From Deltaproteobacteria bacterium (lineage in GTDB: Bacteria > Desulfobacterota > Deferrimicrobia > Deferrimicrobiales > Deferrimicrobiaceae): a DNA stretch of 64,000 nucleotides. How positions within the stretch are numbered: the first letter of the stretch is position 1; each line of letters opens with the position of its first letter. Location of the stretch: NCBI GenBank assembly GCA_016219515.1, contig JACRMU010000065.1:1705-65704 (forward strand). Reading direction: 5' to 3'. Below, one piece after another: positions 20,709 to 49,903 of this stretch. The position numbers and the translations under genes were made by a program. The notes beneath the pieces were generated by a model that was not told where the DNA came from, ran no database searches, and was given only the letters and a program-made list of their open reading frames with translations.

Positions 20709-21145
20709 GGGTCCTCCTTCAGAGAGTGAAAAGCGCCTCGGTCGCCGTCGGGGGGAGGGTTCAAGGCAGGATCGGACAGGGGCTGCTGGCGTTCGTGGGG
20801 ATCGCCCATGCCGACGACGAATCGCACGTTCAGTGGATGTGCGAGAAGATTCTCCGCCTGCGGATCTTCGAGGATGAGGCGGGGAAGATGAACCTCTCGG
20901 TGGCGGACGTGGGCGGGGGGATCCTGGTGGTGTCTCAGTTCACTCTTTACGGAGACGCTTCGAAGGGGAACCGTCCGGGCTTTTCCGAAGCCGCCCCGCC
21001 GGAAAAGGCCGAACGCCTATACGATGAAACGGTCCGGCGCCTGCGAGGCATGACGCAGCTTCCCGTCGAAACCGGGTCGTTCCGCGCGGAAATGGCGGTT
21101 ACGCTCGTGAACGACGGGCCCGTCACGATCTTGCTGGAGAGATAG
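20705..21145 (+). CDS. dtd: D-aminoacyl-tRNA deacylase
   Basis: MRVLLQRVKSASVAV…SQFTLYGD…NDGPVTILLE matches Dtd end to end. The ATG overlaps the upstream kinase stop (ATGA). Confidence 0.85.
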   Translation: MRVLLQRVKSASVAVGGRVQGRIGQGLLAFVGIAHADDESHVQWMCEKILRLRIFEDEAGKMNLSVADVGGGILVVSQFTLYGDASKGNRPGFSEAAPPEKAERLYDETVRRLRGMTQLPVETGSFRAEMAVTLVNDGPVTILLER

Positions 21146-31222: not shown

Positions 31223-33820
31223 TTATTCCGGGCGGTCGTCGTCCAGCACCGCGCGCACTTTCCGCGCGAGGGAGTCCGGCGAGAACGGCTTTTCGATGAA
31301 GGCGGTGCCGGGGTCCAGGACGCCGTGGTGCACGATGGCGTTGTCCGTGTACCCCGACATGTACAGGACTTTCATCTCCGGCCGGGAGGACGCGATCTTT
31401 CGCGAAAGCTGCACTCCGCTCATGCCCGGCATCACCACGTCGCAGAGCATGAGATGGATCTTCCCTTCGTGCCGGTCGGAAGCCAGCAGGGCTTCTTCTC
31501 CGTTGCTTGCGGCAAGGACCGTATATCCGTACCTTTCGAGAATCTCCCGAACCAGCATCCGGACCGCCTCTTCGTCCTCCACCAGGAGGACGGTCTCCGA
31601 ACCCTCGATTCGACCCGTCCGGTCGGGCGCCGGCTCCGGCGCTTCGGCCGCCTCCTCAACGCGCGGCAGGTAGATCTTGAATGTCGTGCCGCGGCCGGGC
31701 TCGCTGTAGACCCAGATATGGCCGCCGCTTTGCTTGACGATTCCGTAGACGGTCGACAGGCCGAGCCCCGTTCCCTTTCCCATCTCCTTGGTCGTGAAAA
31801 AGGGCTCGAATATGCGGGACAAGGTTTCCTGGTTCATCCCGACGCCGGTATCGCTCATCGCGATCATAACGTGGGCCCCGGGACGCATGGTGGCGTGTCC
31901 GCGGGTGTAGGCCTCGTCGATGTCGACGTTCGATGTCTCGATCGTCAGTTTTCCCCCGGAAGGCATGGCGTCCCGCGCGTTGACGGCCAGGTTCATGAGT
32001 ACCTGCGAGATCTGTCCCGGGTCCGCCTTTACCCTCCAAAGGTCGGATTCGAGGAACGTGAGGAGGTTGATATCCTCTCCGATGAGGCGCCGGAGCATCT
32101 GGTCGATGTCCGTGACGACGGTATTCAGGTCGAGGACCTTGGGTTGAAGTATCTGCCGGCGGCTGAAGGCCAGGAGCTGCCGCGTAAGCGCCGCGGCACG
32201 CCTGGCAACACCCCGGATCTCCTGGATGTGGCCGCGCAGCGGGTCCTCGTCGGCCATGCGATTCAGGGCCAGCTCGCTGTAGCCCGTGATCGCGGTGAGG
32301 AGGTTGTTGAAGTCGTGCGCGATCCCGCCGGCGAGCTTTCCGACCGCCTCCATCTTCTGCGACTGGCGGAACTGCTCCTCCATCTTCCGCTCGTCGGTCA
32401 CGTCCCGCTTGACCGCCACGAAGTTCATCAGGCGGCCGGAGGAGTCCCGCACCGGGGAGAGGATCGCCTCTTCCTCGTAGAGACTTCCGTCCTTCCGTTG
32501 GTTGATGATGGTGCCCTTCCATACGTCTCCCCGCTTGATGGTGGCCCACAGCTCCCGATAGAACTCCTCGCCGTGCTTTCCGCTCTTGAGGATGCGCGGA
32601 GTGCGGCCGATGACCTCCTCGGGGGGATATCCCGTGATTCTTTCGAATGCGGGATTGGCGTATTCGATCGTTCCCTCGGGATCGGTGATGAAAATCGCCT
32701 CGACGGACTGCTCGACGGCCGTGGCCAGGCGCTGCAACGCCTCTTCACTTTGCTTCCGGCGCTCCTCGGCCCGGTCCATGGCCCTCCCGACGGCCGTGGC
32801 GACGCGTGAAACGATCATCCCCGCGATCGCTGCGAAAATCACCGCGGATAACGCGGCCCCCAGGGCGTCGTTCGCGGCGAAAAATTCCGGAAAGATCCCG
32901 TGAAGGGCATCCAATGCAACCACCAGGAAGACGGTCAGCGGAAGAAACGCCCGCAATAATCTGGCGCGGGCGGTGGGTCCGACCAGAAGCTTCAACGGGA
33001 AGCATTCCGGTCCGGCCGCCGCGGTCAGCCCCATTCCCAGAAATAGGAAGCCGCCCGCGGTAAGAACCGCGACCGGAATGACCCCGCTGCCGTAGAGCAG
33101 CGGAGATCCGTACAGGTATCCGAGGAGAAACGTCAGCCCGGATACCGCGACCATACCCCCGAGGATGCCTGCGAGATCCCCCGGGAGCTTGTTGCGGGGT
33201 TCCTTTCCTTCACGGAGAAGAACCAGGCAGATGCCGGTCCCGGCCAGGAAAAACAGTGCGCCCGTCGCCGGGGACATGCGTCCCGTGGGAACGTCGCCGA
33301 GCATCGCGGGGGCGGGGTAAAGAAACGTTTCGAGGGGAAGGTCCACCCCTGTCCAAATCATGGCGAACTTGAATAGTCCATAGACGGAGATCAGCGCGGA
33401 AATCGCCGCGGCAAGCACCCGGCCGCCACCTCGCCAGGGCCTCAGGGAATGTGAGGATAAAATTGCGCCGATCAGCAGAAAAACAATGGCCGTGGTTGGA
33501 GCTACAGGGATATACAGAGGGTGAATGCTGGCGAGGAATTGCAGCCCGGGGATCCAGCCCAGAAGGGCGAGCGCACCGATAAACGAAGACGCGGCGCCGC
33601 ACAGAAACACCATTCGTCCGAAGGAACCGGAAAAAAAGATTTCCGGAGAAAGAATAGAGCGCATACCCCTCCGCGCCGATCCTTGCTCTCCAGTAAGGAT
33701 GTAACTAATAAACCTTAAACGATAATTTGATGCAATATAATAAATAATCGTTTCGAAAGATTTTTCGCGGTTTGCTCCGGAGGATCTTCTTTCGTTCCAT
33801 GTCTTGACGCGGTTGCCCAT
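31223..33820 (-). CDS. hybrid sensor histidine kinase/response regulator with multi-TM membrane sensor domain and PAS
   Basis: About 330-aa polytopic N-terminal region, PAS, H-box [12 protein letters not shown], HATPase ([20 protein letters not shown]), and a C-terminal REC domain. Confidence 0.85.
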   Translation of the reverse strand: MGNRVKTWNERRSSGANREKSFETIIYYIASNYRLRFISYILTGEQGSARRGMRSILSPEIFFSGSFGRMVFLCGAASSFIGALALLGWIPGLQFLASIHPLYIPVAPTTAIVFLLIGAILSSHSLRPWRGGGRVLAAAISALISVYGLFKFAMIWTGVDLPLETFLYPAPAMLGDVPTGRMSPATGALFFLAGTGICLVLLREGKEPRNKLPGDLAGILGGMVAVSGLTFLLGYLYGSPLLYGSGVIPVAVLTAGGFLFLGMGLTAAAGPECFPLKLLVGPTARARLLRAFLPLTVFLVVALDALHGIFPEFFAANDALGAALSAVIFAAIAGMIVSRVATAVGRAMDRAEERRKQSEEALQRLATAVEQSVEAIFITDPEGTIEYANPAFERITGYPPEEVIGRTPRILKSGKHGEEFYRELWATIKRGDVWKGTIINQRKDGSLYEEEAILSPVRDSSGRLMNFVAVKRDVTDERKMEEQFRQSQKMEAVGKLAGGIAHDFNNLLTAITGYSELALNRMADEDPLRGHIQEIRGVARRAAALTRQLLAFSRRQILQPKVLDLNTVVTDIDQMLRRLIGEDINLLTFLESDLWRVKADPGQISQVLMNLAVNARDAMPSGGKLTIETSNVDIDEAYTRGHATMRPGAHVMIAMSDTGVGMNQETLSRIFEPFFTTKEMGKGTGLGLSTVYGIVKQSGGHIWVYSEPGRGTTFKIYLPRVEEAAEAPEPAPDRTGRIEGSETVLLVEDEEAVRMLVREILERYGYTVLAASNGEEALLASDRHEGKIHLMLCDVVMPGMSGVQLSRKIASSRPEMKVLYMSGYTDNAIVHHGVLDPGTAFIEKPFSPDSLARKVRAVLDDDRPE

Positions 33821-33965: not shown

Positions 33966-34859
33966 ATGGGCAGCGGAATCGGACGCAGTTTCGACTTTCT
34001 GCCGGTAAACGAGCGGGAAGGCAAACCCCGCAGGCGCGGCATCACGGAGATGCGGGGACCCTATTACGCGCCGGTGGGAAAACGGTACCTGCAGGACATC
34101 CTGGAAACGATGGGCGCATATATCGATATCTTCAAGTTCAGCGGCGGCTCCTTCAGTCTCATGCCGGAGAAGGCGGTCCGGGAGCTGATCGATACCTGCC
34201 ACGAGCACGACGTCCTGGTGTCCACGGGCGGCTTCATCGAGCGCGTGCTCACCCACGGCGGGGATGCCGTGGACCGTTACCTGGAGGAATGCCGGAGATT
34301 GAAGTTCGATATCGTCGAGATATCGAGCGGCTTCATCACCGTTCCGCCGAACGACCTGATCGGCCTGGTCCGGAAGGTCTCCGACCTCGGCATGAAGCCG
34401 AAACCGGAGGTCGGGATCCAGTTCGGCGCCGGAGGGGCGAGCTCCGTGGAGGAACTCGAAGCCGAGGGGACCTCGGACCCTTCGCAGGCCATCCGGGCGG
34501 CGAAGCTTTACCTGGATGCCGGCGCGCACCTCATCATGATCGAGTCCGAGGGGATCACGGAGAACGTGAGGAAGTGGCGCACCGACGTGGTCGCCCGGAT
34601 CGTCAACGAGATCGGCCTCGACAAGGTGATGTTCGAGGCGGCCGACCCGGAGGTGTTTTCCTGGTACATAAAGAACTTCGGGCCCGAGGTCAATTTGTTC
34701 GTCGACCATTCCCAGGTGGTCCAGCTGGAGTGCCTGCGTTCCGGGATCTGGGGGACGAAGAGCACGTGGGGCCGCGTGGTTACCTATAAGGAAAAAGACC
34801 GCGCCGCCGCGCCGGCCAAGCCGAAGCTGGTCGAGCCCACGGCGAAAGGCGGGAGGTGA
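33966..34859 (+). CDS. comA: (2R)-phospho-3-sulfolactate synthase ComA family protein
   Basis: MGSGIGRSFDFLPVNEREGKPRRRGITEMRGPYY…IDIFKFSGGSFSLMPEKAVRELIDTCHEHDVLVSTGGFIE is the ComA/PSL synthase (TIM-barrel) family signature. RBS aaaggaaaggggg. Confidence 0.8.
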   Translation: MGSGIGRSFDFLPVNEREGKPRRRGITEMRGPYYAPVGKRYLQDILETMGAYIDIFKFSGGSFSLMPEKAVRELIDTCHEHDVLVSTGGFIERVLTHGGDAVDRYLEECRRLKFDIVEISSGFITVPPNDLIGLVRKVSDLGMKPKPEVGIQFGAGGASSVEELEAEGTSDPSQAIRAAKLYLDAGAHLIMIESEGITENVRKWRTDVVARIVNEIGLDKVMFEAADPEVFSWYIKNFGPEVNLFVDHSQVVQLECLRSGIWGTKSTWGRVVTYKEKDRAAAPAKPKLVEPTAKGGR

Positions 34860-34863
34860 CGGC

Positions 34864-36261
34864 ATGGCGGGGAATGCAACGGCGGCGAGGCAAGGGGAGG
34901 AGCGTTACCGGACCCGCTCCGAACAGATGGCATCCTTTGTCGAACACGCCGCCTGGGAGGACCTCTCCCCGGCGGCGCGGGAGGCGCTGAAGATCCGCGT
35001 GCTCGATTCCCTGGGCTGCGCCTTCGGCGCGCTTGCGGGGCCTCCGATCCGGCTCCTCCGCTCGGATGTGGAGGAGTTCGGCGGAAACCCGCTTTGCACG
35101 CTGATCGGAGGAGGGTACACGTCCCCCGACCGGGCGGCCTTCTTCAACGGCGCCCTGGTCCGTTACCTGGACTTCAACGACAGTTACCTCGCCAAGGGAG
35201 AGACGTGCCACCCGAGCGACAACCTCGGCGCGGTGCTCGCCGCGTCCGAATATTCGCTGGCCTCGGGGCGGCAGTTCCTGACGGCGCTGGCGGTCGCCTA
35301 CCAGGTGCAGTGCCGCCTCTCCGACGTCGCCCCGGTCCGCGCAAGGGGCTTCGACCACACCACGCAGGGTGCGTTCGCCGCCGCCGCGGGCGCCGCGAAG
35401 GCGCTGGAGCTCGCCGCTCCGCAGATCGCCAACGCCCTGGGGATCTCCGGCACCGCCAACAACGCTCTCCGGGTCACCCGCACGGGCGAGCTGTCCCACT
35501 GGAAAGGCCTTGCGTATCCGAACACGGCCTTCGACGCGCTGCGGGCGGCGTTCCTGGCGATGCGCGGCGTCACCGGCCCGCGGGAGGTGTTCGAGGGGAA
35601 CAAGGGGTGGTGCCAGACGGTCTCCGGCGATTTCGAGATCGACTGGTCGAGGGAGAACCTGGAGCGGGTCAAGCGGACGATCCTTAAGAAATTCAACGCG
35701 GAGATCCATTCCCAGTCGGCCATCGAGGGGATGATCGAGCTGATGCGGGAGACCGGTTTTTCGGGGAGGGAGATCGACCGGATCCGGATCGACATTTTCG
35801 ACGTGGCGCACCTGATCATCGGCGGCGGTGCGGAAGGCGACAAGACGGTCGTCCGCACCAAGGAAGAGGCCGATCACAGCCTGCCGTACATGGTATCCGC
35901 CGCAGCGCTCGACGGGCAGGTGATGCCCGAGCAGTACGAGCCGGAGCGGATCGCAAGGGGCGACATCCAGTCGCTGCTGCGCCGCGTCACCGTCGTTCCG
36001 GACCCCGGCCTCTCCCGCCGCTTCCCGGAAGAGCACTCCTGCCGGCTCGCCGTCGCCTTGAAGGACGGCCGGACCCTGATCAAGGAGAAGTACGATTACG
36101 AAGGGTTCCACACGCGCCCGATGTCGTGGGCGAAGGCGGAGGAGAAGTTCCACCGGCTGGCCGACGGCGCCCTGGATATGTTTCGCCGCCAGGAAATCGT
36201 GGACGCCGTCCGGCTGCTGGACGGCATCTCCGTCAGGAACCTGACGGGCCTGTTGGGTTGA
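34864..36261 (+). CDS. MmgE/PrpD (2-methylcitrate dehydratase) family protein
   Basis: Length and conserved blocks typical of MmgE/PrpD. ATG 5 nt after the comA stop, with RBS gggagg. Confidence 0.8.
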   Translation: MAGNATAARQGEERYRTRSEQMASFVEHAAWEDLSPAAREALKIRVLDSLGCAFGALAGPPIRLLRSDVEEFGGNPLCTLIGGGYTSPDRAAFFNGALVRYLDFNDSYLAKGETCHPSDNLGAVLAASEYSLASGRQFLTALAVAYQVQCRLSDVAPVRARGFDHTTQGAFAAAAGAAKALELAAPQIANALGISGTANNALRVTRTGELSHWKGLAYPNTAFDALRAAFLAMRGVTGPREVFEGNKGWCQTVSGDFEIDWSRENLERVKRTILKKFNAEIHSQSAIEGMIELMRETGFSGREIDRIRIDIFDVAHLIIGGGAEGDKTVVRTKEEADHSLPYMVSAAALDGQVMPEQYEPERIARGDIQSLLRRVTVVPDPGLSRRFPEEHSCRLAVALKDGRTLIKEKYDYEGFHTRPMSWAKAEEKFHRLADGALDMFRRQEIVDAVRLLDGISVRNLTGLLG

Positions 36262-37370: not shown

Positions 37371-38381
37371 CTAACAGATCCGCGGAAGCTGGTCCCCCAC
37401 GGGGTAGTCCACCGCGCGCAGGCCGCCGATGACGGTTTTCATGAGAACCCCGGGCGACCCGTCCGTCACCTCGCCGATCACCGTCGCATTTCGCCCGTAC
37501 CGTGTCTTTCTCAGGGTTTCGACGATGGGATCCGCGGATTTTCCGTCGACGATCAGGAGCGCCTTCCCTTCGTTGGCAAGATAGATCGGGTCGAAGCCCA
37601 GGATTTCGCAGATGCCGCGGACCGCCTCCGCCACGGGCAGCCGGCTCTCGTCGAGGACGATCCGGACGCGGGAGGATTCGGCCATCTCGTTCAGGGAGAC
37701 GCCCACGCCGCCGCGGGTCGGATCGCGCATGAACCGCACGGAGCCCCCGAAAACGGAGAGGACGTCGAGCAGCATCGAGGAGAGGGGCGCCACGTCCGAG
37801 AGGATCTCCGCGGCGAGCTCCAGCCGGTTCCTCGCGATCAGCACCGCCGCCTGGTGGTCCCCCATCGTGCCGGTGAGGACGATGCGGTCTCCCGGCCGGA
37901 CGTTTTCCGGCGCGGGTCGCCAGCCGTCGCTTGCGATCCCCACGCCCGACGTGGTGATGAAGATCCCGTCGGCATTTCCCTTTTCCACGACCTTGGTGTC
38001 GCCGCATGCGACCACCACGTTCCCTTCCTTCGCCGCGGCTTTCATGGAGTCCAGGATCGTTTCCAGCGTTGCGACGGGGAACCCTTCCTCCAGGATGAGG
38101 GAGCAGGAGATTGCAACCGGCCTCGCGCCGCAGACGGAGAGGTCGTTCAGCGTCCCGCAGACCGCGAGCCGGCCGATGTCCCCGCCGGGAAAGATCGCGG
38201 GGGTGACCACGTAGCCGTCGGTGGTGAAGGCGATCTCTCCGTCGAGCCGGCCCAGAAGCCCCGAGTCGAACAGCGGGGAGAGGATCGGGTTCTCGAACCG
38301 CTTCGCGATGATCTTCCGGATCAGGTCGCGGCTTTTCTTCCCACCCTCCCCGTGGGAAAGGAGGATCTTCTCACCAGGCAT
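37371..38381 (-). CDS. hypE: [NiFe]-hydrogenase maturation protein HypE
   Basis: AIR-synthase-like fold with the invariant C-terminal PRIC motif (…GDQLPRIC). Confidence 0.9.
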   Translation of the reverse strand: MPGEKILLSHGEGGKKSRDLIRKIIAKRFENPILSPLFDSGLLGRLDGEIAFTTDGYVVTPAIFPGGDIGRLAVCGTLNDLSVCGARPVAISCSLILEEGFPVATLETILDSMKAAAKEGNVVVACGDTKVVEKGNADGIFITTSGVGIASDGWRPAPENVRPGDRIVLTGTMGDHQAAVLIARNRLELAAEILSDVAPLSSMLLDVLSVFGGSVRFMRDPTRGGVGVSLNEMAESSRVRIVLDESRLPVAEAVRGICEILGFDPIYLANEGKALLIVDGKSADPIVETLRKTRYGRNATVIGEVTDGSPGVLMKTVIGGLRAVDYPVGDQLPRIC

Positions 38382-39479
38382 CTATTGCACTCCATACTTG
38401 TAATAGGCGGCGCAGGTGCCTTCGCTCGATACCATGCAGGGGCCGTACGGCTCCTCGGGGGTGCACGCCTTCCCGAACAGCGGGCATTCGCGCGGCGTGA
38501 TCTTTCCCTTGAGGACGTCCCCGCACCGGCAGGCCGTTTTCTCTTCCGAGAAGGGGATCTCGACGCCGAACTTCTTCTGTGCGTCGAAGCCCGCGTACGC
38601 ATCCGCGATCGCAAGCCCCGTGCGGGGGAGCACTCCGATCCCGCGCCAGCCGATGTCGCATTCCCGGAAGACCTTGGCGAGGACTTCCAGTGCCTTCCGG
38701 TTTCCGGAAGGGGTCGCGACCCGGGAGTATTCGTTCTCGACCGTCGCTACCCCCTGCTTTTTCTGGCGGAGCAGCAGGTAGATCCCGTAGAGGATGTCGA
38801 GCGGCTCGAATCCGGCCACGACGCACGGGACGCCGAACTTCCTCGCCAGGGGAAGGTAGGCGTCGGACCCGATGATCGTGCTGACGTGCGCGGGGCAGAG
38901 GAACCCTTCGATCCGCACCTCCGGGTCGGAGGCCAGGACCTCCATCGCGAGCGGAATAGTCCGGACGGAGGAGAGAACGGAGAAGTTTTCGATCTTCCGT
39001 TCGGCCGCCGAAAGGATTGCGCCGGCGATCGAAGGCGCGGTCGTCTCGAACCCCACGCCCAGGAACACCACTTCCTTTTCCGGGTTGCCGGCGGCGATCT
39101 CCACCGCGTCCAGGGGCGAATAGAGGATCCGCACGTCGATTCCCTGTCCCCGCTCCTTTTCCAGCGAAGAGATCCTGCCGGGAACCCGCAGCATGTCGCC
39201 GAAAGTGGCGATGACCGTGTCGGGACGCTTCCCGAGGCCGATGGCGGCGTCGATGTAGCCGTCGGGGGTGACGCAGACGGGGCAGCCGGGGCCCGAGATC
39301 AACGTGATCGCCCCTTCCAGGAGGGAGCGGATCCCCGCGCGCGCGATGCTGACCGTATGGGTCCCGCAGACCTCCATCAGCCGCATGGGCGGCCGGTCGC
39401 CCCAGAGGGTCCGGATCGAGTCGACGACGCCCTTGGCAAGCCCCGGGTCGCGGAACTCGTCAATGTATTTCAGCTGCAT
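38382..39479 (-). CDS. hypD: [NiFe]-hydrogenase maturation protein HypD
   Basis: Conserved CGxH (EVCGTHT), GPGCPVC and FxPxHVS (CPAHVS) motifs. Start at MQLKYIDEFRD (the track ORF is N-extended). Overlaps hypC. Confidence 0.9.
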   Translation of the reverse strand: MQLKYIDEFRDPGLAKGVVDSIRTLWGDRPPMRLMEVCGTHTVSIARAGIRSLLEGAITLISGPGCPVCVTPDGYIDAAIGLGKRPDTVIATFGDMLRVPGRISSLEKERGQGIDVRILYSPLDAVEIAAGNPEKEVVFLGVGFETTAPSIAGAILSAAERKIENFSVLSSVRTIPLAMEVLASDPEVRIEGFLCPAHVSTIIGSDAYLPLARKFGVPCVVAGFEPLDILYGIYLLLRQKKQGVATVENEYSRVATPSGNRKALEVLAKVFRECDIGWRGIGVLPRTGLAIADAYAGFDAQKKFGVEIPFSEEKTACRCGDVLKGKITPRECPLFGKACTPEEPYGPCMVSSEGTCAAYYKYGVQ

Positions 39480-39687
39480 CCGATATTTCCCGAAGGTATT
39501 GGAGCGTCCTCTGCGCCTCCTCCGGGGAGAGCTTCGAGATGGCGAAGCCGGCATGGAGGATGACCCAGTCTCCTTCCCGGACCTCTTCGAGGAGCAGGAC
39601 GGAGATCTCCCGGCGCGCTCCCCCTACCTCCACGGTCGCCGATGTTCCCGCGACCGACATCACCCTTGCGGGCACCCCCAGGCACAT
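39460..39687 (-). CDS. hypC: [NiFe]-hydrogenase maturation chaperone HypC
   Basis: Begins with the MCLGVPA signature. 75 aa. Confidence 0.85.
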   Translation of the reverse strand: MCLGVPARVMSVAGTSATVEVGGARREISVLLLEEVREGDWVILHAGFAISKLSPEEAQRTLQYLREISDAAEIH

Positions 39688-39691
39688 CGCC

Positions 39692-42052
39692 CTACCCCCC
39701 TGATATCGTTTGCGCTGCGAAATACGCCTGTCCCAGCGAGATCCCGCCGTCGTTGGCGGGGACCTCCCGGTGGATCAGCGTCTTGAGCTTTCTTTGCCGG
39801 AACCCGGTGAGAAGCTTCCTTAACAGATAGACGTTCTGGAAGACCCCCCCCGAGAGAAGCACGTGCCCGGCCCCCGTCCCTTCCGCGAGCCGGACCGTTA
39901 CCTCGAGAACTATCTCCGCCACAGTGTCGTGGAACTTCCGCGCGATGACCGGCGCGGGTGTCCCGGCGCTTGCGTCGGAAACGACTCCCGCGATCAGGCC
40001 CTTCCAGTCTATCCCAAGACGCCCGGCTCCGTCGCGGATCGTGTAGGGATAGGTCCCCGTCCCCCGTCCCTTTCGAATGCAACCTTCCAGCAGCATGGCG
40101 GCCTGCCCTTCGTAGCTGGCCTTGCGGCAGATGCCCGCTAGCGCGGAAGCGGCGTCGAAGAGGCGTCCGCAGCTGGAGGACGGCACAACGTTCACCTTCT
40201 TCGAGATCGCGTCGACGAGCAGGCCGATCCGTTCGGGGCCGATATCGGGAAAACGGGAGGCGGCGATCCTTCCCGCCTCCGCGGGTCCGAACGTATCGTG
40301 GAGGAACCCCACCGCGGTCCTCCACGGCTCCCGGACGGCGGCGTCGCCCCCCTGCAGCGGGAAGTAGTCGAAGGCGGCTGCCCGTTTCATCTCCATTCCG
40401 TCGATGGCGAAAAATTCACCGCCCCAGATTGCGCCGTCTTCCCCGTAGCCGGTCCCGTCGAAGGAGACGCCCACCGCCTTTCCGGAGAATCCGGACTCCG
40501 CCAGCAGGGCGTAGAGATGCGCCTTGTGATGCTGGAGGGAGAGGATGCGCCCGGCGCCGATATTTTCCGCGAAGGAGGTCGTGAAGTAGGCGGGATGCGT
40601 ATCGCGGCAGACCGCGGATAGCTCGGCGTCGAGGAACCGCCGGAAAAAATCGAAGGTCTCCTTGTAGAATTCCCGCACGGGAATCTGGTCCAGGTCGCCC
40701 AGGTGCTGGGACAGGTAGGCGAACCCCTCCTTGAGGATGCAGAAAGTGCTTTTCAGTTCACCTCCCAGGCCCGCCACGCAAAGTTTCTTAACCCCAGGGA
40801 CGTTCCTGATCGTTAAGTAATTCGGGGGGATCTCAAGCTTACTCGCGTTTTCAGGAACGTCCCCGGTCTTTAGCAGCACAGGGGCGGGGACGAAGCCGCG
40901 GGCGCGGCGGAGGGGGTAGATCTTCCCGCCGATGCTCCGGACCACGGTGTCGTCGCTTCGCTGCACGATCTCCCGGTTGTGGAGGAGAAAGAGGTCCGCG
41001 ATGCCGGAGAGGCGTGCGATGGCTTCATCGTTGCCGGTGGCGATCGGCTCGTCGGTCGCGTTCCCGCTGGTCATGACGAGCGGGAGGTCCAGCCGGTCGA
41101 AGATCAGGCGGTGCAGCGGGGTGTAAGGGAGAAAGAGCCCGAGGTTCGCAAGCCCCGGCGCCACCGACGGCGCCAGCCGGGCGTTCCCCAGGGTTTCCAC
41201 CAAAAGGACGGGCGCGGACGGAGAGGAGAGGATCGCCTCGTCGTCTTTCGAAAGGCGCGCAAGGGAGCGGGCGGCGGCGAGGTCCGTCACCATCACCGCG
41301 AACGGCTTCTCCTCCCGGTGCTTCCGCTCGCGGAGTTTGCGGACCGCTTCTTCGTTCGTCGCGTCCGCGGCCAGGTGGAAGCCGCCGAGCCCCCGGACGG
41401 CGACGATCTTTCCGGACCGGAGGGCATCGGACACGCACCCCACCGGGTCATCCGTCGCGACCGGTTTCCCCTCCCGCGTCGCCACGGACAGCGACGGCCC
41501 GCAGTCCGGGCAGGCGTTCGGCTCCGCGTGGAACCGCCGGTCCCCGGGGTCCTCGTATTCCCTCCGGCACCGCGTGCAGAGAGGGAAAACCGACATGGAA
41601 GTGTTCTCGCGGTCGTAGGGGAGCCTGCCGACGATCGTGAACCGGGGGCCGCAGCCGGTGCAGTTGATGAACGGATAACCGAAGCGCCGGTCGTTCGGGT
41701 CGGACAGCTCCCGGAGGCAGGCGGGGCACAAGGCGATGTCCGGCGGGATCGTGGAGAGGGCGGTCCCCGACTGCTCGCTCTTCTCGATGGCGAAGCCGGA
41801 GAAGCCTTCGCGCGCCACGCGCTGTTCCGTGATGCGCGCCACGCGGGCGGCGGGCGGCAGCTCTTCGCGGAACAGCTCCCGGAAGCGGCGGATCGCCTCC
41901 GGATCCCCTTCGAGGTGGACGGTCACGCTCCCCGGAGTGTTCGTCACATACCCGCGCAGGCCGCTGCGGACGGCGATCCGGTAGATGAAGGGGCGGAACC
42001 CCACCCCCTGGACCACACCGCGAATCGTAAGACGCAAGGCGACGGCCGGCAT
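39692..42052 (-). CDS. hypF: carbamoyltransferase HypF
   Basis: Acylphosphatase domain (VQGVGFRPF), two Zn-finger pairs (CPACLREL…CTGCGPRF; CTRCRREY…CPDCGP), YrdC and Kae1-like domains. True start ATG 42052 (MPAVALRLTIRG). The track's 1240-aa ORF continues upstream as an antisense artefact over hypB/hypA. Confidence 0.85.
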   Translation of the reverse strand: MPAVALRLTIRGVVQGVGFRPFIYRIAVRSGLRGYVTNTPGSVTVHLEGDPEAIRRFRELFREELPPAARVARITEQRVAREGFSGFAIEKSEQSGTALSTIPPDIALCPACLRELSDPNDRRFGYPFINCTGCGPRFTIVGRLPYDRENTSMSVFPLCTRCRREYEDPGDRRFHAEPNACPDCGPSLSVATREGKPVATDDPVGCVSDALRSGKIVAVRGLGGFHLAADATNEEAVRKLRERKHREEKPFAVMVTDLAAARSLARLSKDDEAILSSPSAPVLLVETLGNARLAPSVAPGLANLGLFLPYTPLHRLIFDRLDLPLVMTSGNATDEPIATGNDEAIARLSGIADLFLLHNREIVQRSDDTVVRSIGGKIYPLRRARGFVPAPVLLKTGDVPENASKLEIPPNYLTIRNVPGVKKLCVAGLGGELKSTFCILKEGFAYLSQHLGDLDQIPVREFYKETFDFFRRFLDAELSAVCRDTHPAYFTTSFAENIGAGRILSLQHHKAHLYALLAESGFSGKAVGVSFDGTGYGEDGAIWGGEFFAIDGMEMKRAAAFDYFPLQGGDAAVREPWRTAVGFLHDTFGPAEAGRIAASRFPDIGPERIGLLVDAISKKVNVVPSSSCGRLFDAASALAGICRKASYEGQAAMLLEGCIRKGRGTGTYPYTIRDGAGRLGIDWKGLIAGVVSDASAGTPAPVIARKFHDTVAEIVLEVTVRLAEGTGAGHVLLSGGVFQNVYLLRKLLTGFRQRKLKTLIHREVPANDGGISLGQAYFAAQTISGG

Positions 42053-42123
42053 CGGACTTCCCAGTGTACCAGAAGTGCCCCGGCTGCCGCCGATGCCGTC
42101 GCGTGTGTTATATAATCCAAGAG

Positions 42124-42286: not shown

Positions 42287-42943
42287 ATGAAGGTGGACAT
42301 CGAGCGGCAGATCCAGCAGTCGGCGGAGGAGACCGCGGGGAAGATCCGCGACCTGCTCGCCGCCCGGAAGGTTTTCGCCGTGAACCTCATCTCCTCGCCG
42401 GGGTCCGGGAAGACCACGCTGATCGAGAGCGCGATCGAGGCGCTTCGCGGGAAGAAGCGGGTGTCGGTAGTCGAGGGGGACATCGAGACCGACATCGACG
42501 CGGCGCGGATCCGCAAGCACGGCGTCCAGGTCCATCAGATCAACACCCGTTCCTCCTGCCATGTCCCGCCGTTCCTCCTGCTGTCGGCCCTGGATCACAT
42601 CGACCTGGACGCGACGGACCTTCTCTTCGTGGAGAACGTGGGGAACCTGGTGTGCCCCGCCGAGGTGCCGCTCGGGGAAGACCTGCGCGTCGTCGCGCTG
42701 AGCGTGGCGGAAGGGGACGAGAAGCCGCTCAAGTATCCGCTGGTCTTCAAGACATCCGACATTCTGGTCATCACGAAGACCGATCTGCTCCCTTACGTCA
42801 AGTTCGACCCCGGCCGGGTGAAAGCCGCCGCCCGGGCGGTCAACCCCCGCGTGGAGATCTTCGAGGTCTCGGCGGTCACGGGATCGGGGATTTCCTCCTT
42901 CCTGGAAAGAATCGAAGAACTCTGCGGGCGGAAAACCGGGTAG
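42287..42943 (+). CDS. hypB: hydrogenase nickel-incorporation GTPase HypB
   Basis: G1 motif SSPGSGKTTL, ENVGNLVCP metal-binding motif, G4 TKTDL. Confidence 0.85.
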   Translation: MKVDIERQIQQSAEETAGKIRDLLAARKVFAVNLISSPGSGKTTLIESAIEALRGKKRVSVVEGDIETDIDAARIRKHGVQVHQINTRSSCHVPPFLLLSALDHIDLDATDLLFVENVGNLVCPAEVPLGEDLRVVALSVAEGDEKPLKYPLVFKTSDILVITKTDLLPYVKFDPGRVKAAARAVNPRVEIFEVSAVTGSGISSFLERIEELCGRKTG

Positions 42944-42947
42944 TGCC

Positions 42948-43310
42948 ATGCACGAACTGGGGATCGCGAGGGACATTCTGGACATCGCGGTTGCCGAAGC
43001 GGAGAAACACGGGGGCTGCCGGATCACCCGCGTGGATCTCGAAGTGGGGGTCCTGCGTGGGGTCGTCCCCGAGAACCTGGCGTTCCTGTTCGGCCACGTC
43101 GCCATGGGGACGATCGCCGAAGGGGCCCGCCTTGCAATAGAGGAGCAGCCGGCCCGCGTGGCGTGCGAAGCGTGCGGCCCGGTCGAGGCCCGCGGTTTCA
43201 CCATCGCATGCCCCGCCTGCGGGAGCCCCGCCGTGAAGGTCGAGGGGGGAGACGCCCTCCGCATCCTTTCCATCGACATCGACGATTCCCTGCCGGCGCG
43301 GGAGGCTTGA
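42948..43310 (+). CDS. hypA: hydrogenase nickel-insertion protein HypA
   Basis: N-terminal MHE nickel-binding signature and two CxxC pairs (CEACG…CPACG). Confidence 0.8.
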   Translation: MHELGIARDILDIAVAEAEKHGGCRITRVDLEVGVLRGVVPENLAFLFGHVAMGTIAEGARLAIEEQPARVACEACGPVEARGFTIACPACGSPAVKVEGGDALRILSIDIDDSLPAREA

Positions 43311-45914
43311 ATGAGCAAGGCGCGCGGTAATCCGAGCACGGGGCTGCCGGGGCTGGACCGGGTGGTCCAGCGGCTGCTGCCGGGCGACAACATCGTCTGG
43401 CAGGTCGATTCCATCGAGGATTATCTTCCTTTCGTCGCGCCGTACTGCGAGGACGCGGTCCGCAAGGGGAAGAAGCTCGTCTATTTCCGGTTCGCCAGGC
43501 ACGCGGAGCTTGTGGGGGAGGACAGCGGCGCGGAGATCCACCGGCTGAACCCCGAGGTGGGTTTCGAAACGTTCACCGCGGAGATCCACAAGGTGATCGA
43601 GCGGGCGGGACGCGGGACCTTCTATCTCTTCGACTGCCTGTCGGACCTGGCCGCCGACTGGTACAGCGACCTGATGCTGGGCAACTTCTTCATGGTGACC
43701 TGCCCGTACCTCTACGAGCTGGAAACGATCACCTACTTCGCTCTCCTCCGCGACCGCCACTCGTTCGAGGCGGTCTCTGCGATCCGGGACACGACCCAGC
43801 TCCTCCTCGACGTCTTCCGCAACGGGGGGAAGTTTTACGTCCACCCTCTGAAGGTCCACCAGCGGAACTCGCCGACGATGTACCTCCCCCACGTCCGGGA
43901 CGGAGAGGAATTCCGCCCCCTGACGGAGAGCGCCGTCCTCTCGGAAGTGCTTGCGCAGATCACCTCGCAGCGGGTCGATGCGGTCCCGCGCACCCCGGAC
44001 CTTTGGGACCGGAAGTTCCTCCAGGCGCGGGAGATCAAGGAGGACGTTCGTGAAGGCCGGAAACCTTCGAAGGAGGCGGAGGACATCTTCCCCGGTCTCC
44101 TGCGGATGATGGTGACCCGGGACGAACGGGTGATCGCGCTGGCCTCCCGGTACCTCGATCTCACCGATCTGCTGGCCATCCGGAAGCGGATGATCGGGAC
44201 GGGGCTGATCGGCGGAAAATCGGTCGGGATGCTCCTCTCCCGGGCGATCCTCGCCCGCACGAACGGCCGCTGGCGGGAACGGATGGAGACCCACGACTCC
44301 TTCTACATCGGCTCGGACGTTTTCTACACCTACCTGGTGCGCAACGGCCTCTGGAAGGCGCGGCGCGACCAGAGGGATCCCCTTTCCTTCCTCGCGGGGG
44401 CCAAAGGTGCAAGGAAGAAGATCCTTTCGGGGACGTTCCCCTCCTTCCTCCGCGGGCAGTTCCTCGCGATGCTGGAGTATTTCGGCCAGTCGCCGATCAT
44501 CGTCCGGTCGAGCAGCCTGCTGGAGGACAGCTTCGGCAACGCCTTCACGGGGAAGTACGAGAGCGTCTTCTGCCCGAACCAGGGTTCGCCGGAGGAGCGC
44601 CTGAAGGCCTTCCTGTCGGCAGTGAAGGCGGTGTACGCCAGCACGATGAGCGAGGATGCCCTCCTGTACCGCGCCCATCGGGGGCTCCTCGACCGGGACG
44701 AGCAGATGGCGCTCCTCGTGCAGCGGGTTTCCGGGGCCATCCACGGCAACCTGTTCTATCCGCAGGTCGCGGGCGTCGGACTTTCCTACAATCCCTTCGC
44801 GTGGAGCGAGTACATCGATCCCCAGGCGGGGATGCTGCGGGTCGTCTTCGGCCTCGGGACGAGGGCGGTCGAACGCACCGACGACGACTACACGCGCCTC
44901 GTCGCCCTCAACGCTCCCGACCGGCGGCCGGAAGCGGACTTCGGCGAGGTCATGGAGTTCGCCCAGCGCCGCGTCGACGCCCTCGACCTCTCCGCCAACC
45001 GGTTCGTTTCGCTGAACGTGGACGACGTGGTCAGGGTCAGCCCCAACCTGCCGATCGAGATGTTCGCGGCGCGCATGGAGCCGGCGGCGGGGCGTTCGAA
45101 GGACGGCGCCCCGTCCCGATGCGTCCTCACCTTCGACCGTCTGCTTTCCGCCACGCCGTTCGTATCGGACATGAAGGAGATGCTCGCCGTCCTGAGGGAC
45201 GCCTACGATTACCCCGTCGACATCGAATTCACCGCGAACTTCCTTCCCGACGGAAGCTACCGGATCAACCTCGTCCAGTGCCGTCCCCTCCAGGTCAAGG
45301 AGGGGGGAGGGATCCCGTCGCCGCCCCGGACGATTGCGAAGAAGGACCGCGTTTTCGAATCCCGCGGGCCGATCGTCGGCCAGAGCTCGCACACCGCCGT
45401 CGACCGGCTGATCTACGTGGACCCCTCCGCCTACGTGAAGCTGTCGATCGGCGACCGCCACTCCGTCGCGCGGCTGATCGGACGGATCACGCATGTCGAG
45501 GAGGAGGGGGAGAAGAAAACGATCCTGCTGCTCGGGCCGGGCCGGTGGGGGACGAAGATGCCGTCCCTGCGCGTGCCGGTGTCGTTCGCCGAGATCGCCC
45601 CCGTCTCCGTGCTCTGCGAGATCGTCTCCATGGGGGCGATCATCGTTCCGGACGTTTCCCTGGGCACGCACTTCTTCAACGACCTCGTCGAGGCGAACAT
45701 GCTCTACCTCGCGGTCTTCCCGAAGGGGAAGGAGAGCCCGCTGAACGAGGCGTTCTTCCTGCGGTCGAAGAACCGTCTCGCCGGTTTGCTTCCCGACGAC
45801 GCCGAATGGTCGGAGGCGGTGCGCGTCATCGACGTTCCGTCCGGCCGGGGGGGGAAGAAGCTCCTCCTCAATGCGAACACGCTGAAGCAACGGGCCGTCT
45901 GCTATTTCGTCTGA
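43311..45914 (+). CDS. KaiC/RecA-like N-terminal domain lacking a P-loop, fused to a PEP/pyruvate-binding (PPDK_N, ATP-grasp-like) domain protein; no phosphohistidine swivel domain seen
   Basis: N-terminus TGLPGLDRVVQRLLPGDNIVWQVDS resembles the KaiC/RadA GIPGLD...L.GG.P block, but GxxGxGKT is absent. The middle region SSLLEDSFGNAFTGKYESV…LLVQRV…GVG is like the PpsA/PPDK N-terminal nucleotide-binding domain. The ATG is directly adjacent to the hypA stop. Confidence 0.6.
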   Translation: MSKARGNPSTGLPGLDRVVQRLLPGDNIVWQVDSIEDYLPFVAPYCEDAVRKGKKLVYFRFARHAELVGEDSGAEIHRLNPEVGFETFTAEIHKVIERAGRGTFYLFDCLSDLAADWYSDLMLGNFFMVTCPYLYELETITYFALLRDRHSFEAVSAIRDTTQLLLDVFRNGGKFYVHPLKVHQRNSPTMYLPHVRDGEEFRPLTESAVLSEVLAQITSQRVDAVPRTPDLWDRKFLQAREIKEDVREGRKPSKEAEDIFPGLLRMMVTRDERVIALASRYLDLTDLLAIRKRMIGTGLIGGKSVGMLLSRAILARTNGRWRERMETHDSFYIGSDVFYTYLVRNGLWKARRDQRDPLSFLAGAKGARKKILSGTFPSFLRGQFLAMLEYFGQSPIIVRSSSLLEDSFGNAFTGKYESVFCPNQGSPEERLKAFLSAVKAVYASTMSEDALLYRAHRGLLDRDEQMALLVQRVSGAIHGNLFYPQVAGVGLSYNPFAWSEYIDPQAGMLRVVFGLGTRAVERTDDDYTRLVALNAPDRRPEADFGEVMEFAQRRVDALDLSANRFVSLNVDDVVRVSPNLPIEMFAARMEPAAGRSKDGAPSRCVLTFDRLLSATPFVSDMKEMLAVLRDAYDYPVDIEFTANFLPDGSYRINLVQCRPLQVKEGGGIPSPPRTIAKKDRVFESRGPIVGQSSHTAVDRLIYVDPSAYVKLSIGDRHSVARLIGRITHVEEEGEKKTILLLGPGRWGTKMPSLRVPVSFAEIAPVSVLCEIVSMGAIIVPDVSLGTHFFNDLVEANMLYLAVFPKGKESPLNEAFFLRSKNRLAGLLPDDAEWSEAVRVIDVPSGRGGKKLLLNANTLKQRAVCYFV

Positions 45915-45960: not shown

Positions 45961-46794
45961 TCACGGCTCCATTCTGCGGTATCTCGTTGCCCTTCCCGCG
46001 CCGATGCGCGTCAACAAGTTGAGGGCGACGAGCCGGTTCAGGACCTGCTTGGCGGTTTCCCTCGAAAGGCCGAGTTCTCCCGATACCATCCGGTTGGTGA
46101 TCTCGCGGTGCCGGTCGAGCAGGGCCAGAACGCTTGACTGGTTCCCCGAGAGGCGGCTTTCCCCCGGAAACGCCGCCAGCAGCCCCTTGAGCTCTCTCGC
46201 CTGGACTCGCATCGCGTCGACGAAAGCGGTCAGCCAGGGGCCCATGTCGAGCCTCGGCAGATGCCGTGACGCCTGGCTTTTCCGCAGGGCGAGGTAATAT
46301 TCCGCCTTCCGCTCCGCAACGACTTTTTCGAGAGAGGCGTAGGGGAGGTAGGCGTATCCGCATTGCAGGAGGAGCAGGTCGGTGAGGATGCGGCTCGTGC
46401 GGCCGTTTCCCGCTGCGAACGGACGGATCGCGAGAAACTCGAGAAGGAAGCCGGCGACGACAAGGAGCGGATGAAACTCCGCCGAGCGGAGCCGGGAGTT
46501 CGTCCAGGAGATCAGTTCGTCCATTTCCCGCTCGATCGAGCCGGGGTCCGAGGGGCGCAGCGCGATCGATTCCATGCTCCTCCGGGGGAAGAAGGCGGAG
46601 CGGTCGGGGGTGGACCGGTAGGCCCCCCGGTGCCCCCGGTCCCCGGGGGAATACCGCAACAGGCCGGCGTGGAACGAAAGGAGGAGTTCCGGGGAGAGCG
46701 TCCTCTCCGCGTGCCCGTCGAACACCGTTCGCAACAGGTGCGCGTAGCTCGCCGCGGAGGCGTGGCGCAGTTCCCCGGCTCTTTCCGGCGACAT
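45961..46794 (-). CDS. Fic-domain protein with C-terminal winged-HTH; Fic motif reads RPFAAGNGR (Arg in place of the catalytic His)
   Basis: FLLEFLAIRPFAAGNGRTSRIL corresponds to the Fic core HPFx[DE]GNGR. Alternative minus frames in the track (45902-46933, 46512-47045) are low-complexity artefacts. Confidence 0.65.
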   Translation of the reverse strand: MSPERAGELRHASAASYAHLLRTVFDGHAERTLSPELLLSFHAGLLRYSPGDRGHRGAYRSTPDRSAFFPRRSMESIALRPSDPGSIEREMDELISWTNSRLRSAEFHPLLVVAGFLLEFLAIRPFAAGNGRTSRILTDLLLLQCGYAYLPYASLEKVVAERKAEYYLALRKSQASRHLPRLDMGPWLTAFVDAMRVQARELKGLLAAFPGESRLSGNQSSVLALLDRHREITNRMVSGELGLSRETAKQVLNRLVALNLLTRIGAGRATRYRRMEP

Positions 46795-47050
46795 CGCGGC
46801 CGCCCGTTCGTCCCCGCGCCGCGGGATACCGACCCAATCGATCCCGACGGAAGCCCTCGCGGAGATCGCGATCGTCCTCTTCCGCAGGTCCGCGAGATAG
46901 GAGGGGGGCGGCTGAAACCGTCCCCTCCACCATCCCTTGAACTCGTCGATCTCCGAGATCCCCGAAAGGAGGACGGGCCAGGACGGAGGGAAGACCGCGC
47001 GCAGCTGGCTGTCGAGCCGTTTTTCCAGGATGCCTCCATGGACACAGATC

Positions 47051-47177: not shown

Positions 47178-48521
<1,344 letters not shown>

Positions 48522-48925: not shown

Positions 48926-49903
48926 ATGAAGCGAATTCTCATCCCCGTATTGGTATTCGTTGCCGCAATGAGCGTCTCGACGTGGTCGCATGCCACGACC
49001 CTGCTGGGAGACGCCGCGCTTTATAATGTGTTCGTTTTCGACGACATGAACGTCGGGTCGGACACCCAGGGCCGCGTCGCGGTCGGCGGGAATTTTACCG
49101 CTGCAAGTTACAGCATCGGCACCCTTTCATCGCCTGCACAATACAGCCTTGTCACCGGGGGGAACGTTGTTTATGGCCCCGGCTCCATTCGCCATGGCGG
49201 TATATATTCCGGAGGGAACGTCACATTAAAAAACTATTCCGTTGCAGGCGACGTAGTCGCGAGGGGTACGGTGACTACGATAAATGGCGGGACGGTCACC
49301 GGAACCGTCCAGGCGGGTTCGTCTCTTGCCGGTCCCGTAAATTTCACGGCCGCCGAGATCTATCTCAAGGGGGTATCCTACGATTTATCGCATGGGGTAA
49401 TGAACGGCACCACGACGGTCTCCCCCTGGCATGCAATCACTCTGTCCGGCAGCAATGCCGTGAATTCGTTTTACCTGAGTGGCACCGACCTTGCGAATGC
49501 GTCAAGTCTTACATTCAATTTCGCCTCCGATAAGATCGGCATCGTCAACGTTTCCGGGACAGACTGCGATTTCAGCGGGTTCGGATTTTTCGGCGGGGGC
49601 CTGGCCGAAAATATCCTTTTCAATTTTTATGAAGCGGAGAACCTCACCATCGGCAGCATCGGCGTAAGAGGAAGCATTCTGGCGCCTTACGCGGACATTA
49701 CGTTCAACTCCGGAGTGGTCCATGGCAGCGTGATCGCGGAATCGATCGTCGGGGGCGGACAATTCAATCAGAATCTATTCGACCATGAAATTCCCGGCGG
49801 CAGCCAGCCGGTGCCGGAGCCGGCCACGATGCTCCTTTTCGGCTCAGGGCTGGCCGGGCTTGCCGCGACGCGGCTCAGGAAGGGTGGTAAGATGCCTCGT
49901 TAA
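48926..49903 (+). CDS. choice-of-anchor A domain protein with C-terminal PEP-CTERM sorting signal, secreted
   Basis: Signal peptide. LGDAALYNVFVFDDMNVGSDTQGRVAVGGN matches the choice-of-anchor A N-terminal signature. C-terminus VPEPATMLLFGSGLAGLAATRLRKGGK is PEP + TM + basic tail. Confidence 0.8.
   Translation: MKRILIPVLVFVAAMSVSTWSHATTLLGDAALYNVFVFDDMNVGSDTQGRVAVGGNFTAASYSIGTLSSPAQYSLVTGGNVVYGPGSIRHGGIYSGGNVTLKNYSVAGDVVARGTVTTINGGTVTGTVQAGSSLAGPVNFTAAEIYLKGVSYDLSHGVMNGTTTVSPWHAITLSGSNAVNSFYLSGTDLANASSLTFNFASDKIGIVNVSGTDCDFSGFGFFGGGLAENILFNFYEAENLTIGSIGVRGSILAPYADITFNSGVVHGSVIAESIVGGGQFNQNLFDHEIPGGSQPVPEPATMLLFGSGLAGLAATRLRKGGKMPR

Follow-up and report, generated by a model that had tools for sequence, protein, structure and literature searches.

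The window analysed here, a 64,000-nucleotide stretch of contig JACRMU010000065.1 from a deltaproteobacterium (assembly GCA_016219515.1), carries on its plus strand a gene, ORF867 (positions 43311-45914, ATG start), for a protein of 867 amino acids that combines a KaiC-like, an ATP-grasp and a swivel-like domain and is deposited as MBI5342704.1 under the name 'pyruvate, phosphate dikinase'. The conserved genomic partners of the ORF867 family are glutamate dehydrogenase (GDH), GltB/GltD and NrpR, the 2-oxoglutarate-responsive nitrogen repressor. Here we argue, giving the idea somewhat better than an even chance, that ORF867 acts at the GDH/GOGAT node as a dikinase-like, ATP-dependent regulator or enzyme, the target and the chemistry being what we infer. 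GDH and GOGAT are the points at which nitrogen enters biomass and, to our knowledge, little is known about the control of bacterial GDH outside a few model organisms; the ORF867 family is a concrete, testable candidate for a control element of the GDH node or for an unknown reaction there.

The family is large and widely spread. In a survey of relatives with one genome per species, at least 585 of 600 candidate stretches hold a gene for a relative of ORF867, and a sequence search with ORF867 returned more than 8000 matches, the top 120 of which are full-length, with 65-100% identity. The neighbourhood statistics given below come from the best 80 of these at least 585 species matches and from eight metagenomic contigs, many contigs of metagenome-assembled genomes (MAGs) being short. 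The best 80 relatives span residues ~9-866 at 52-89% identity and share the same architecture of ~870 amino acids. According to the taxon labels in their sequence records, these relatives are from Myxococcota, Acidobacteriota, Planctomycetota, Verrucomicrobiota, Kiritimatiellota, Lentisphaerota, Hydrogenedentota, Omnitrophota, Spirochaetota and Armatimonadota, as well as from Geobacteraceae, Syntrophaceae and Chromatiales. Identity of at least 52% over ~860 residues is maintained across about 11 phyla. No NCBIfam or Pfam model was found that covers the N- or the C-terminal domain, and no report of this architecture, or of a link between GDH and the PPDK_N domain, was found in the literature searched, the paper on HpeHI being relevant as a structural comparator only.

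Of 82 homolog loci whose surroundings were considered, 45 have a GDH gene within 10 kb. When the count is restricted to the 48 loci whose flanks both reach 3 kb or more, GDH is present within 10 kb in 34 and within 3 kb in 30, in ~11 phyla; since a 20 kb interval makes up at most ~1% of such genomes, the enrichment of GDH near ORF867 would amount to about two orders of magnitude. The gap between the two genes is shorter than 600 bp in 28 loci, and GDH is located upstream on the same strand (20 cases), upstream and divergent (15), downstream on the same strand (6) or convergent (4). Unbiased clustering of the neighbouring open reading frames (ORFs) yielded GDH in 43 loci, the glutamate synthase subunits GltD (GltD-like proteins, 21 loci) and GltB (12-15 loci), and an NfnA/SudB-like subunit in 7. 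By strict counts, NrpR (PF01995 with a winged helix-turn-helix domain) is found near ORF867 in 13-17 loci, at a median distance of 362 bp. The modules come in several orders (arrowheads mark the direction of genes), namely gdh< nrpR> ORF867>, nrpR< gdh> ORF867>, gdh> ORF867> gltB> gltD>, and ORF867 with gltBD without gdh.

The centre of the protein (aa 293-664; 44187-45302, plus strand) is an ATP-grasp nucleotide-binding domain of the PPDK_N type, with the Pfam PPDK_N model matching aa 299-664 at an E-value of 4.2e-44. In 42 homologs with 36-53% identity, the set used for all statements on invariance, K303 (in GGK), R399-S-S, E405-D406, E639, Q656 and R658 are invariant (42/42), that is, the conserved Lys, the Arg-Ser-Ser and the Glu/Gln/Arg of a PPDK_N site are all in place; the segment SSLLEDSFGNAFTGKYESV (aa 400-418) is part of this domain. 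As judged from these residues, the ATP-grasp site appears to be intact, of the dikinase type, and looks catalytically competent. This domain is shared with rifampin phosphotransferase (RPH), phosphoenolpyruvate (PEP) synthase (PEPS) and pyruvate, phosphate dikinase (PPDK), and its presence, together with the names 'pyruvate, phosphate dikinase' and 'pyruvate,water dikinase' in the source records, would speak for a genuine PEPS or PPDK. However, the NCBIfam PEPS, PPDK, RPH and PigC models match the PPDK_N stretch alone, with 15-46 bits against cut-offs of 456-1350 (456-1063 where PEPS and PPDK are concerned). ORF867 lacks the GGxT[S/C]HAAI motif and the PF00391 domain, and Pfam detects in it no acceptor-substrate domain, neither the PEP/pyruvate TIM barrel nor the rifampin-binding domain; the remaining two thirds of the protein consist of a novel C-terminal domain and, as the third domain, an N-terminal pseudo-ATPase of the KaiC fold. 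The missing domains exclude a true PEPS or PPDK, a reading to which we attach hardly any credence. Sequence searches of the PDB (single-sequence and profile HMM, with the full protein and its parts) gave weak matches to the ATP-grasp domains of PEPS and RPH and a sub-threshold one to KaiC. Whereas PEPS, PPDK and RPH belong to gluconeogenesis or antibiotic resistance, the ORF867 family is found in the context of nitrogen assimilation; within the dikinase superfamily, it is a new domain combination with an atypical putative carrier domain in a new biological context. In the databases, family members are called PPDK, PEPS or 'PEP/pyruvate-binding domain-containing protein', with thousands of entries named 'pyruvate, phosphate dikinase' or 'pyruvate, water dikinase', and through this misnaming a gluconeogenic step would find its way, wrongly, into reconstructions of the metabolism of MAGs.

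The C-terminal domain (aa 665-867; 45303-45911, plus strand), which appears to have a swivelling beta/beta/alpha-like fold, stands where PEPS and PPDK hold their phosphohistidine domain, and the best-supported, but unproven, view is that it is a divergent, swivel-like phospho-carrier. The candidate phospho-carrier histidine is His787 (CAC codon at 45669-45671, plus strand), which is invariant (42/42) and is retained in the receiver-fused paralog described below. It is part of the motif S-L-G-T-H787-F-F-N-D, which follows GPGRWGT (aa 742-748); the pair of GPGRWG[T/S] and S-x-G-[T/S]-H-F-F, 41-43 residues apart, is found family-wide. In the predicted structure, a beta-strand and a loop lead into a helix whose N-terminal end carries His787, and the catalytic histidine of PPDK and PEPS has this same topology. 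A separate model of the domain (predicted template modelling score, pTM, 0.78) gave top fold matches most of which, among them RraA, the cyclases, LD-carboxypeptidase and the C-domain of the Geobacillus pyruvate kinase, we take to have the 'swivelling beta/beta/alpha' fold of SCOP; the fold assignment is weak. An hhalign comparison showed aa 618-700 to be co-linear with residues 299-380 of Escherichia coli PpsA, a stretch in which the ATP-grasp domain ends and the first swivel strands follow. With aa 655-867 alone, Pfam gave no match at E<=10, and the single-sequence and profile HMM searches of the PDB yielded nothing for this domain. The original prediction, made from the DNA sequence alone, had stated that no swivel domain of the TSHAAI type was visible: the TSHAAI motif is indeed absent, but, in view of the swivel-like fold, the invariant His787 and the co-linearity with PpsA, the claim that there is no swivel domain was probably too strong. 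No gene for a canonical swivel domain (an ORF with GG..[STC]H[AS][AS][IVL]) was found in the window or in any of the 82 loci, nor is one among the conserved neighbour clusters; hence, any carrier histidine must be either in cis or encoded far away. The two-component dikinases HpeHI, PpsAB and CreHI need a neighbouring HpeH-type subunit with the canonical swivel histidine (PMC12167813); this separate subunit has no counterpart gene in the 82 loci, and ORF867 instead bears its own divergent C-terminal domain.

The N-terminal domain (aa 9-206; 43335-43928, plus strand) shows a KaiC/RecA fold without Walker A but with the Walker-B-like Asp108 retained. In the AlphaFold2 model of ORF867, for which 42 homologs served as input (pTM 0.74), this domain has a RecA-type alpha/beta core, the predicted local distance difference test being ~80-93 across aa 10-210, and a helical linker, as seen in the secondary structure of the model (aa 207-292; 43929-44186, plus strand), connects it to the ATP-grasp. 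Residues 9-34 comprise the STGLPGLD...LLPGDNIVWQVDS block. The family profile aligns with KaiC-CII below threshold (E 0.6), yet is in register at three motifs: in this alignment, TGLPGLD pairs with SGVPELD of KaiC, V-D-S-I-E-D-Y sits over the Walker A GATGTGKT, FAFEES pairs with YFRFA(R/K)H, in which R60 and H64 are largely conserved and the position of the catalytic Glu pair of KaiC reads F-A-R-H, and the Walker B segment AIDSLS pairs with FYLFD108CLS, with D108 invariant (42/42). The Walker A pattern G-x4-G-K-[ST] is absent from ORF867, which reads GDNIVWQVDSIEDY there, and occurs within the first 120 aa of none of 41 full-length representatives of 50% clusters (identity down to ~36%). Its position, that of beta1-GxxGxGKT in KaiC, is taken by a degenerate P-loop, G25-D-N-I-V-W-Q-V-D33-S-I-E-D-Y38 (43383-43424, plus strand), a conserved, largely acidic loop that, to judge from its residues, would not permit canonical nucleotide binding. 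Unlike KaiC, ArlH(FlaH), SSO2452 and PH0284, where Walker A is present, ORF867 thus has an acidic loop of the V-D-S-I-E-D-Y type, and it differs from the KaiC-like ATPases also by the fusion to a dikinase-type module. The Elongator subunits Elp4/5/6 and the N-domain of BcsE are P-loop-less RecA folds, too; ORF867 has no detectable sequence relationship with them and has other partners and another biology.

Pfam run on aa 1-296 alone found no match at E<=10. A search with the N-terminal domain retrieved 879 representative clusters; of the 150 listed, nearly every complete protein measures 845-917 aa, and the domain is found essentially solely in this architecture. Most likely, it serves in regulation or in the binding of a ligand or partner, possibly also in oligomerisation, and the earlier notion of a pseudo-ATPase scaffold is plausible. 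The three-part build proposed in the original prediction is borne out: the P-loop-less KaiC/RecA-like domain was read correctly, as the in-register motifs, the lack of Walker A in all 41 representatives and the invariant Asp108 indicate, the PpsA-type centre is confirmed by the PPDK_N match, and the C-terminus has no Pfam match. Both motif segments quoted there, the LLPGDNIVWQVDS block and SSLLEDSFGNAFTGKYESV, were located in ORF867, and the statement that the protein is not a conventional PEP synthase, PPDK or RPH agrees with NCBIfam scores far below the cut-offs and with the missing acceptor domain.

A further clue comes from three loci of Acidobacteria, where two cassette genes stand in a row behind gdh, the first encoding ~989 aa and the second being the ORF867 ortholog. 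The product of the first gene (L011:2878-5964, L012:5591-8563 and L016:6969-9983, plus strand, between gdh and the ortholog) contains REC, a weakly matching DUF5752, PPDK_N and the C-terminal domain; its N-terminus is made of response-regulator receiver domain(s), with no KaiC-like domain. This paralog is 27% identical to ORF867 over 547 aa, covering the ATP-grasp and the C-terminal domain and including GPGRWGS and GTHFF, and the pattern GPGRWG(41-43 aa)G[TS]HFF is common to the REC paralog and the ORF867 family. It represents a large, conserved family of Bryobacterales, annotated as 'CheY-like chemotaxis protein', 'histidine kinase' or 'PEP/pyruvate-binding'. With the shared part being the ATP-grasp and C-terminal domain and the difference lying at the N-terminus, it appears that the two domains form a conserved cassette that is placed behind interchangeable N-terminal modules, the receiver being a classic signalling input. 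The REC-fused paralog favours the view that the KaiC-like domain serves in regulation or recognition and that catalysis, as the output, falls to the cassette.

The following mechanism can be envisaged. The ATP-grasp domain would spend ATP on the phosphorylation of His787 in the swivel-like domain, in the manner of dikinases, and the phosphoryl group would then move on to an acceptor that sits at the N-terminal domain or is recruited by it. Most probably, this acceptor would be GDH itself or a metabolite of the glutamate/glutamine/2-oxoglutarate node, so that ammonium assimilation could be tuned to the energy and nitrogen status of the cell. In its specific form, namely that ORF867 is a pseudo-KaiC-gated enzyme of the dikinase type which phosphorylates GDH, or otherwise switches it covalently or allosterically, via an atypical phospho-His787 domain, the proposal is tentative, and we rate its chances well below even. 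If it is true, ammonium assimilation in many non-model phyla (Planctomycetota, Verrucomicrobiota, Kiritimatiellota, Acidobacteriota, Myxococcota, Desulfobacterota, Hydrogenedentota and others) would be under a post-translational control that has so far escaped notice, comparable in its role to GlnE/GlnD for glutamine synthetase, with the REC-gated paralog feeding two-component signals into the same node.

The same architectural evidence can be accommodated by a small-molecule dikinase that would transfer phosphate from ATP via His~P to glutamate, glutamine, 2-oxoglutarate or a derivative, the remodelled pocket of the KaiC-like domain being the substrate site. The glutamine kinase Cj1418 is an analogue of such an enzyme. 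The charged and polar residues D16, D26, N27 and D108 of the pocket are invariant, K181 and R185 are nearly so, and the neighbours GDH and GOGAT are themselves metabolic enzymes. Such a dikinase would also be analogous to RPH and HpeHI, in both of which a third domain other than a TIM barrel binds a small substrate (PMC12167813). However, no known pathway in these organisms needs such a phospho-metabolite and no conserved downstream enzyme is seen in the neighbourhood, whereas the REC-fused paralog and the linkage to NrpR are more suggestive of regulation than of a pathway, and the identity of at least 52% over 860 aa across phyla fits a protein partner as well as a metabolite. We consider this possibility rather unlikely, although appreciable. 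Somewhat less probable still is a non-catalytic sensor, in which the ATP-grasp would bind ATP, ADP or AMP and GDH (or NrpR) would be controlled allosterically by contact, with the pseudo-KaiC scaffold matching the hexameric GDH. A precedent is the GDH of Thermus, which is subject to AMP-dependent regulation by an APRT-like pseudo-enzyme; yet in the ORF867 family the catalytic, and not merely the binding, residues of the ATP-grasp are invariant in 42 of 42 homologs together with His787, which is unusual for a pure sensor, and the cassette serves as an output module behind a receiver domain.

Several observations weigh against the assignment of ORF867 as a dikinase-like factor of the GDH/GOGAT node. 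In about a quarter of the well-flanked loci, no nitrogen gene is found within 10 kb, and a scan of the 250 nt upstream of 75 orthologs for the NrpR operator (GGAA-N6-TTCC), sigma-54 -24/-12, NtcA and TnrA boxes revealed no meaningful enrichment. From the neighbourhood alone, control of GDH and catalysis on a related metabolite cannot be told apart, and the literature searched contains no biochemical or genetic data on any family member. As to the carrier domain, hhalign against PpsA, PtsI and PtsP did not align the catalytic histidine motif, Pfam detected no family, PF00391 included, at E<=10 in 26 orthologous C-terminal domains, and the domain matches neither GGxT[S/C]HAAI nor T/S-xx-GG-xxx-H, the latter being the canonical phosphohistidine swivel motif (PMC12167813). 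Finally, the junction of ORF867 with hypA, considered next, could provide a local, secondary link to hydrogenase expression in this genome.

In the window, ORF867 is the last gene of a co-directional run with hypB (42287-42943) and hypA (42948-43310), both on the plus strand and both identified by Pfam and NCBIfam equivalog models. The TGA of hypA (43308-43310) directly abuts the ATG of ORF867 (43311-43313), the spacer being 0 nt; a Shine-Dalgarno sequence for ORF867, GGGAGG (43300-43305, plus strand), lies within the last bases of hypA, and neither a promoter-like nor a terminator-like site was found between the two genes. Because of these three features, it is very likely, on sequence grounds, that hypBA and ORF867 are co-transcribed and translationally coupled in this genome. 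The ORF with its hypA-abutting start, checked for coordinates and length, is real, and its predicted co-expression with hypBA here is well founded. The prediction had gone further, however, and made ORF867 a nucleotide-dependent modifier attached to a hydrogenase maturation operon. On this view, it would be an accessory factor acting with HypA/HypB in nickel insertion or in another step of [NiFe] maturation. Beyond the TGA|ATG junction with its internal Shine-Dalgarno sequence, the hypBA-ORF867 order in the close relatives L003 and L087, and some hydrogenase-related genes upstream in nine loci of the lineage, are in favour of such a factor.

The wider survey does not support it. When the neighbours in the window were used as tblastn queries, hyp genes were found near only two of 80 loci, L003 and L045, both close relatives. 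With the test widened to the [NiFe] structural genes, HycI and FlpD, and with six more relatives (86 loci in all), hyp- or hydrogenase-related genes were seen in 10 of 86 loci; nine of these carry homologs at least 65% identical to ORF867; in the tenth, L018, the match is a weak one (30%, FlpD-like), apart from which the 70+ loci of other phyla outside the lineage have no hyp or hydrogenase genes. Within the lineage of the window, the block of ORF867, Fic, GDH, (CBS) and aconitase genes is constant, whereas the upstream segment varies, with at least four arrangements: hypB-hypA in the window, L003 and L087; hypFCDE in L045; genes for the [NiFe] small and large subunits and cytb plus a radical-SAM gene in L088, L089 and L004; hydrogenase genes alone in L002, where the radical-SAM gene is downstream; a Mvh-like hydrogenase with HycI in L090 and L006; and unrelated genes in L001. 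The adjoining gene changes accordingly (hypA, hypE, radical SAM, hypotheticals), while ORF867-Fic-GDH is fixed. Since the hyp and hydrogenase genes are confined to this lineage and stand there in varied arrangements, the position next to hyp is a local accident; the location of ORF867 behind hypA is lineage-specific synteny with no functional link at the level of the family, and a family of the same architecture, present in at least 585 species genomes, is without a general link to hyp genes. Moreover, ORF867 keeps every family-invariant residue and hence shows no sign of neofunctionalisation. A role in hydrogenase maturation is, in our estimate, very improbable, and the case illustrates that even a perfect translational-coupling junction can be a lineage-specific accident.

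At the variable boundary, inserted genes were seen directly upstream of ORF867, namely RHS/TseH and HigB genes in L002 (2474-7600) and, in L001 (3013-7743), a SNF2 helicase gene with a SLFN/AlbA_2-HATPase-Fic-like gene. These inserts are toxin- or defence-like and suggest that the edge of the variable hyp/hydrogenase segment is a recombination hotspot. On the other side, ORF867 is adjoined, in this lineage only, by a convergent Fic/DIP2311-like winged helix-turn-helix gene (45961-47028, minus strand). A frameshift considered for this gene was rejected: it is intact, with 355 aa aligning to L087, and starts with CTG where L087 has ATG, the same GGAGG Shine-Dalgarno sequence preceding both; ORF callers shorten it to 277 aa because CTG replaces ATG.

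The family-wide neighbour, a GDH of the ELFV family, is encoded in the window 1.3 kb downstream of ORF867 (47178-48521, plus strand). It has an in-frame TAG at codon 21 (47238-47240), where L087, the 92%-lineage relative, has GAG, and its longest ORF restarts at a GTG (47259), giving 420 aa versus 447 aa in the homologs; the TAG could reflect a nonsense mutation, an error in the MAG consensus, or reinitiation. The genes gltD (479 aa) and gltB (1525 aa) are located 16-22 kb upstream of ORF867 (21123-27132, minus strand), flanked by genes for three PAS-HisKA-HATPase-REC hybrid kinases (18432-20708, 27230-30166 and 31223-33820) and a SBP_bac_3 protein. Between the GDH and CBS genes, in the window as well as in L087, is a gene for a choice-of-anchor-A/pAdhesive_15 protein with a PEP-CTERM signal (48926-49903, plus strand).

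Upstream of the orthologs, a loose sigma-54 pattern was observed at 7 loci versus 2.5 expected, a weak enrichment. In the PVC-group loci L027, L072, L075 and L078, a near-identical sequence, TGGCCGA(T/C)GC(N)ATGCT, fits this loose pattern 41-199 nt upstream; where gdh is directly upstream, such a sigma-54-like site may fall inside the 3' end of gdh.

An Rfam scan of the whole window gave no match. The remaining hyp genes of the window are divergent from hypB, on the minus strand: hypF (~39692-42100), hypC (39460-39687), hypD (38382-39554) and hypE (37371-38381). Upstream of this cluster lie the genes for ComA, a (2R)-phospho-3-sulfolactate synthase, and for a MmgE/PrpD-family protein (33966-36261, plus strand), which are seemingly unrelated.

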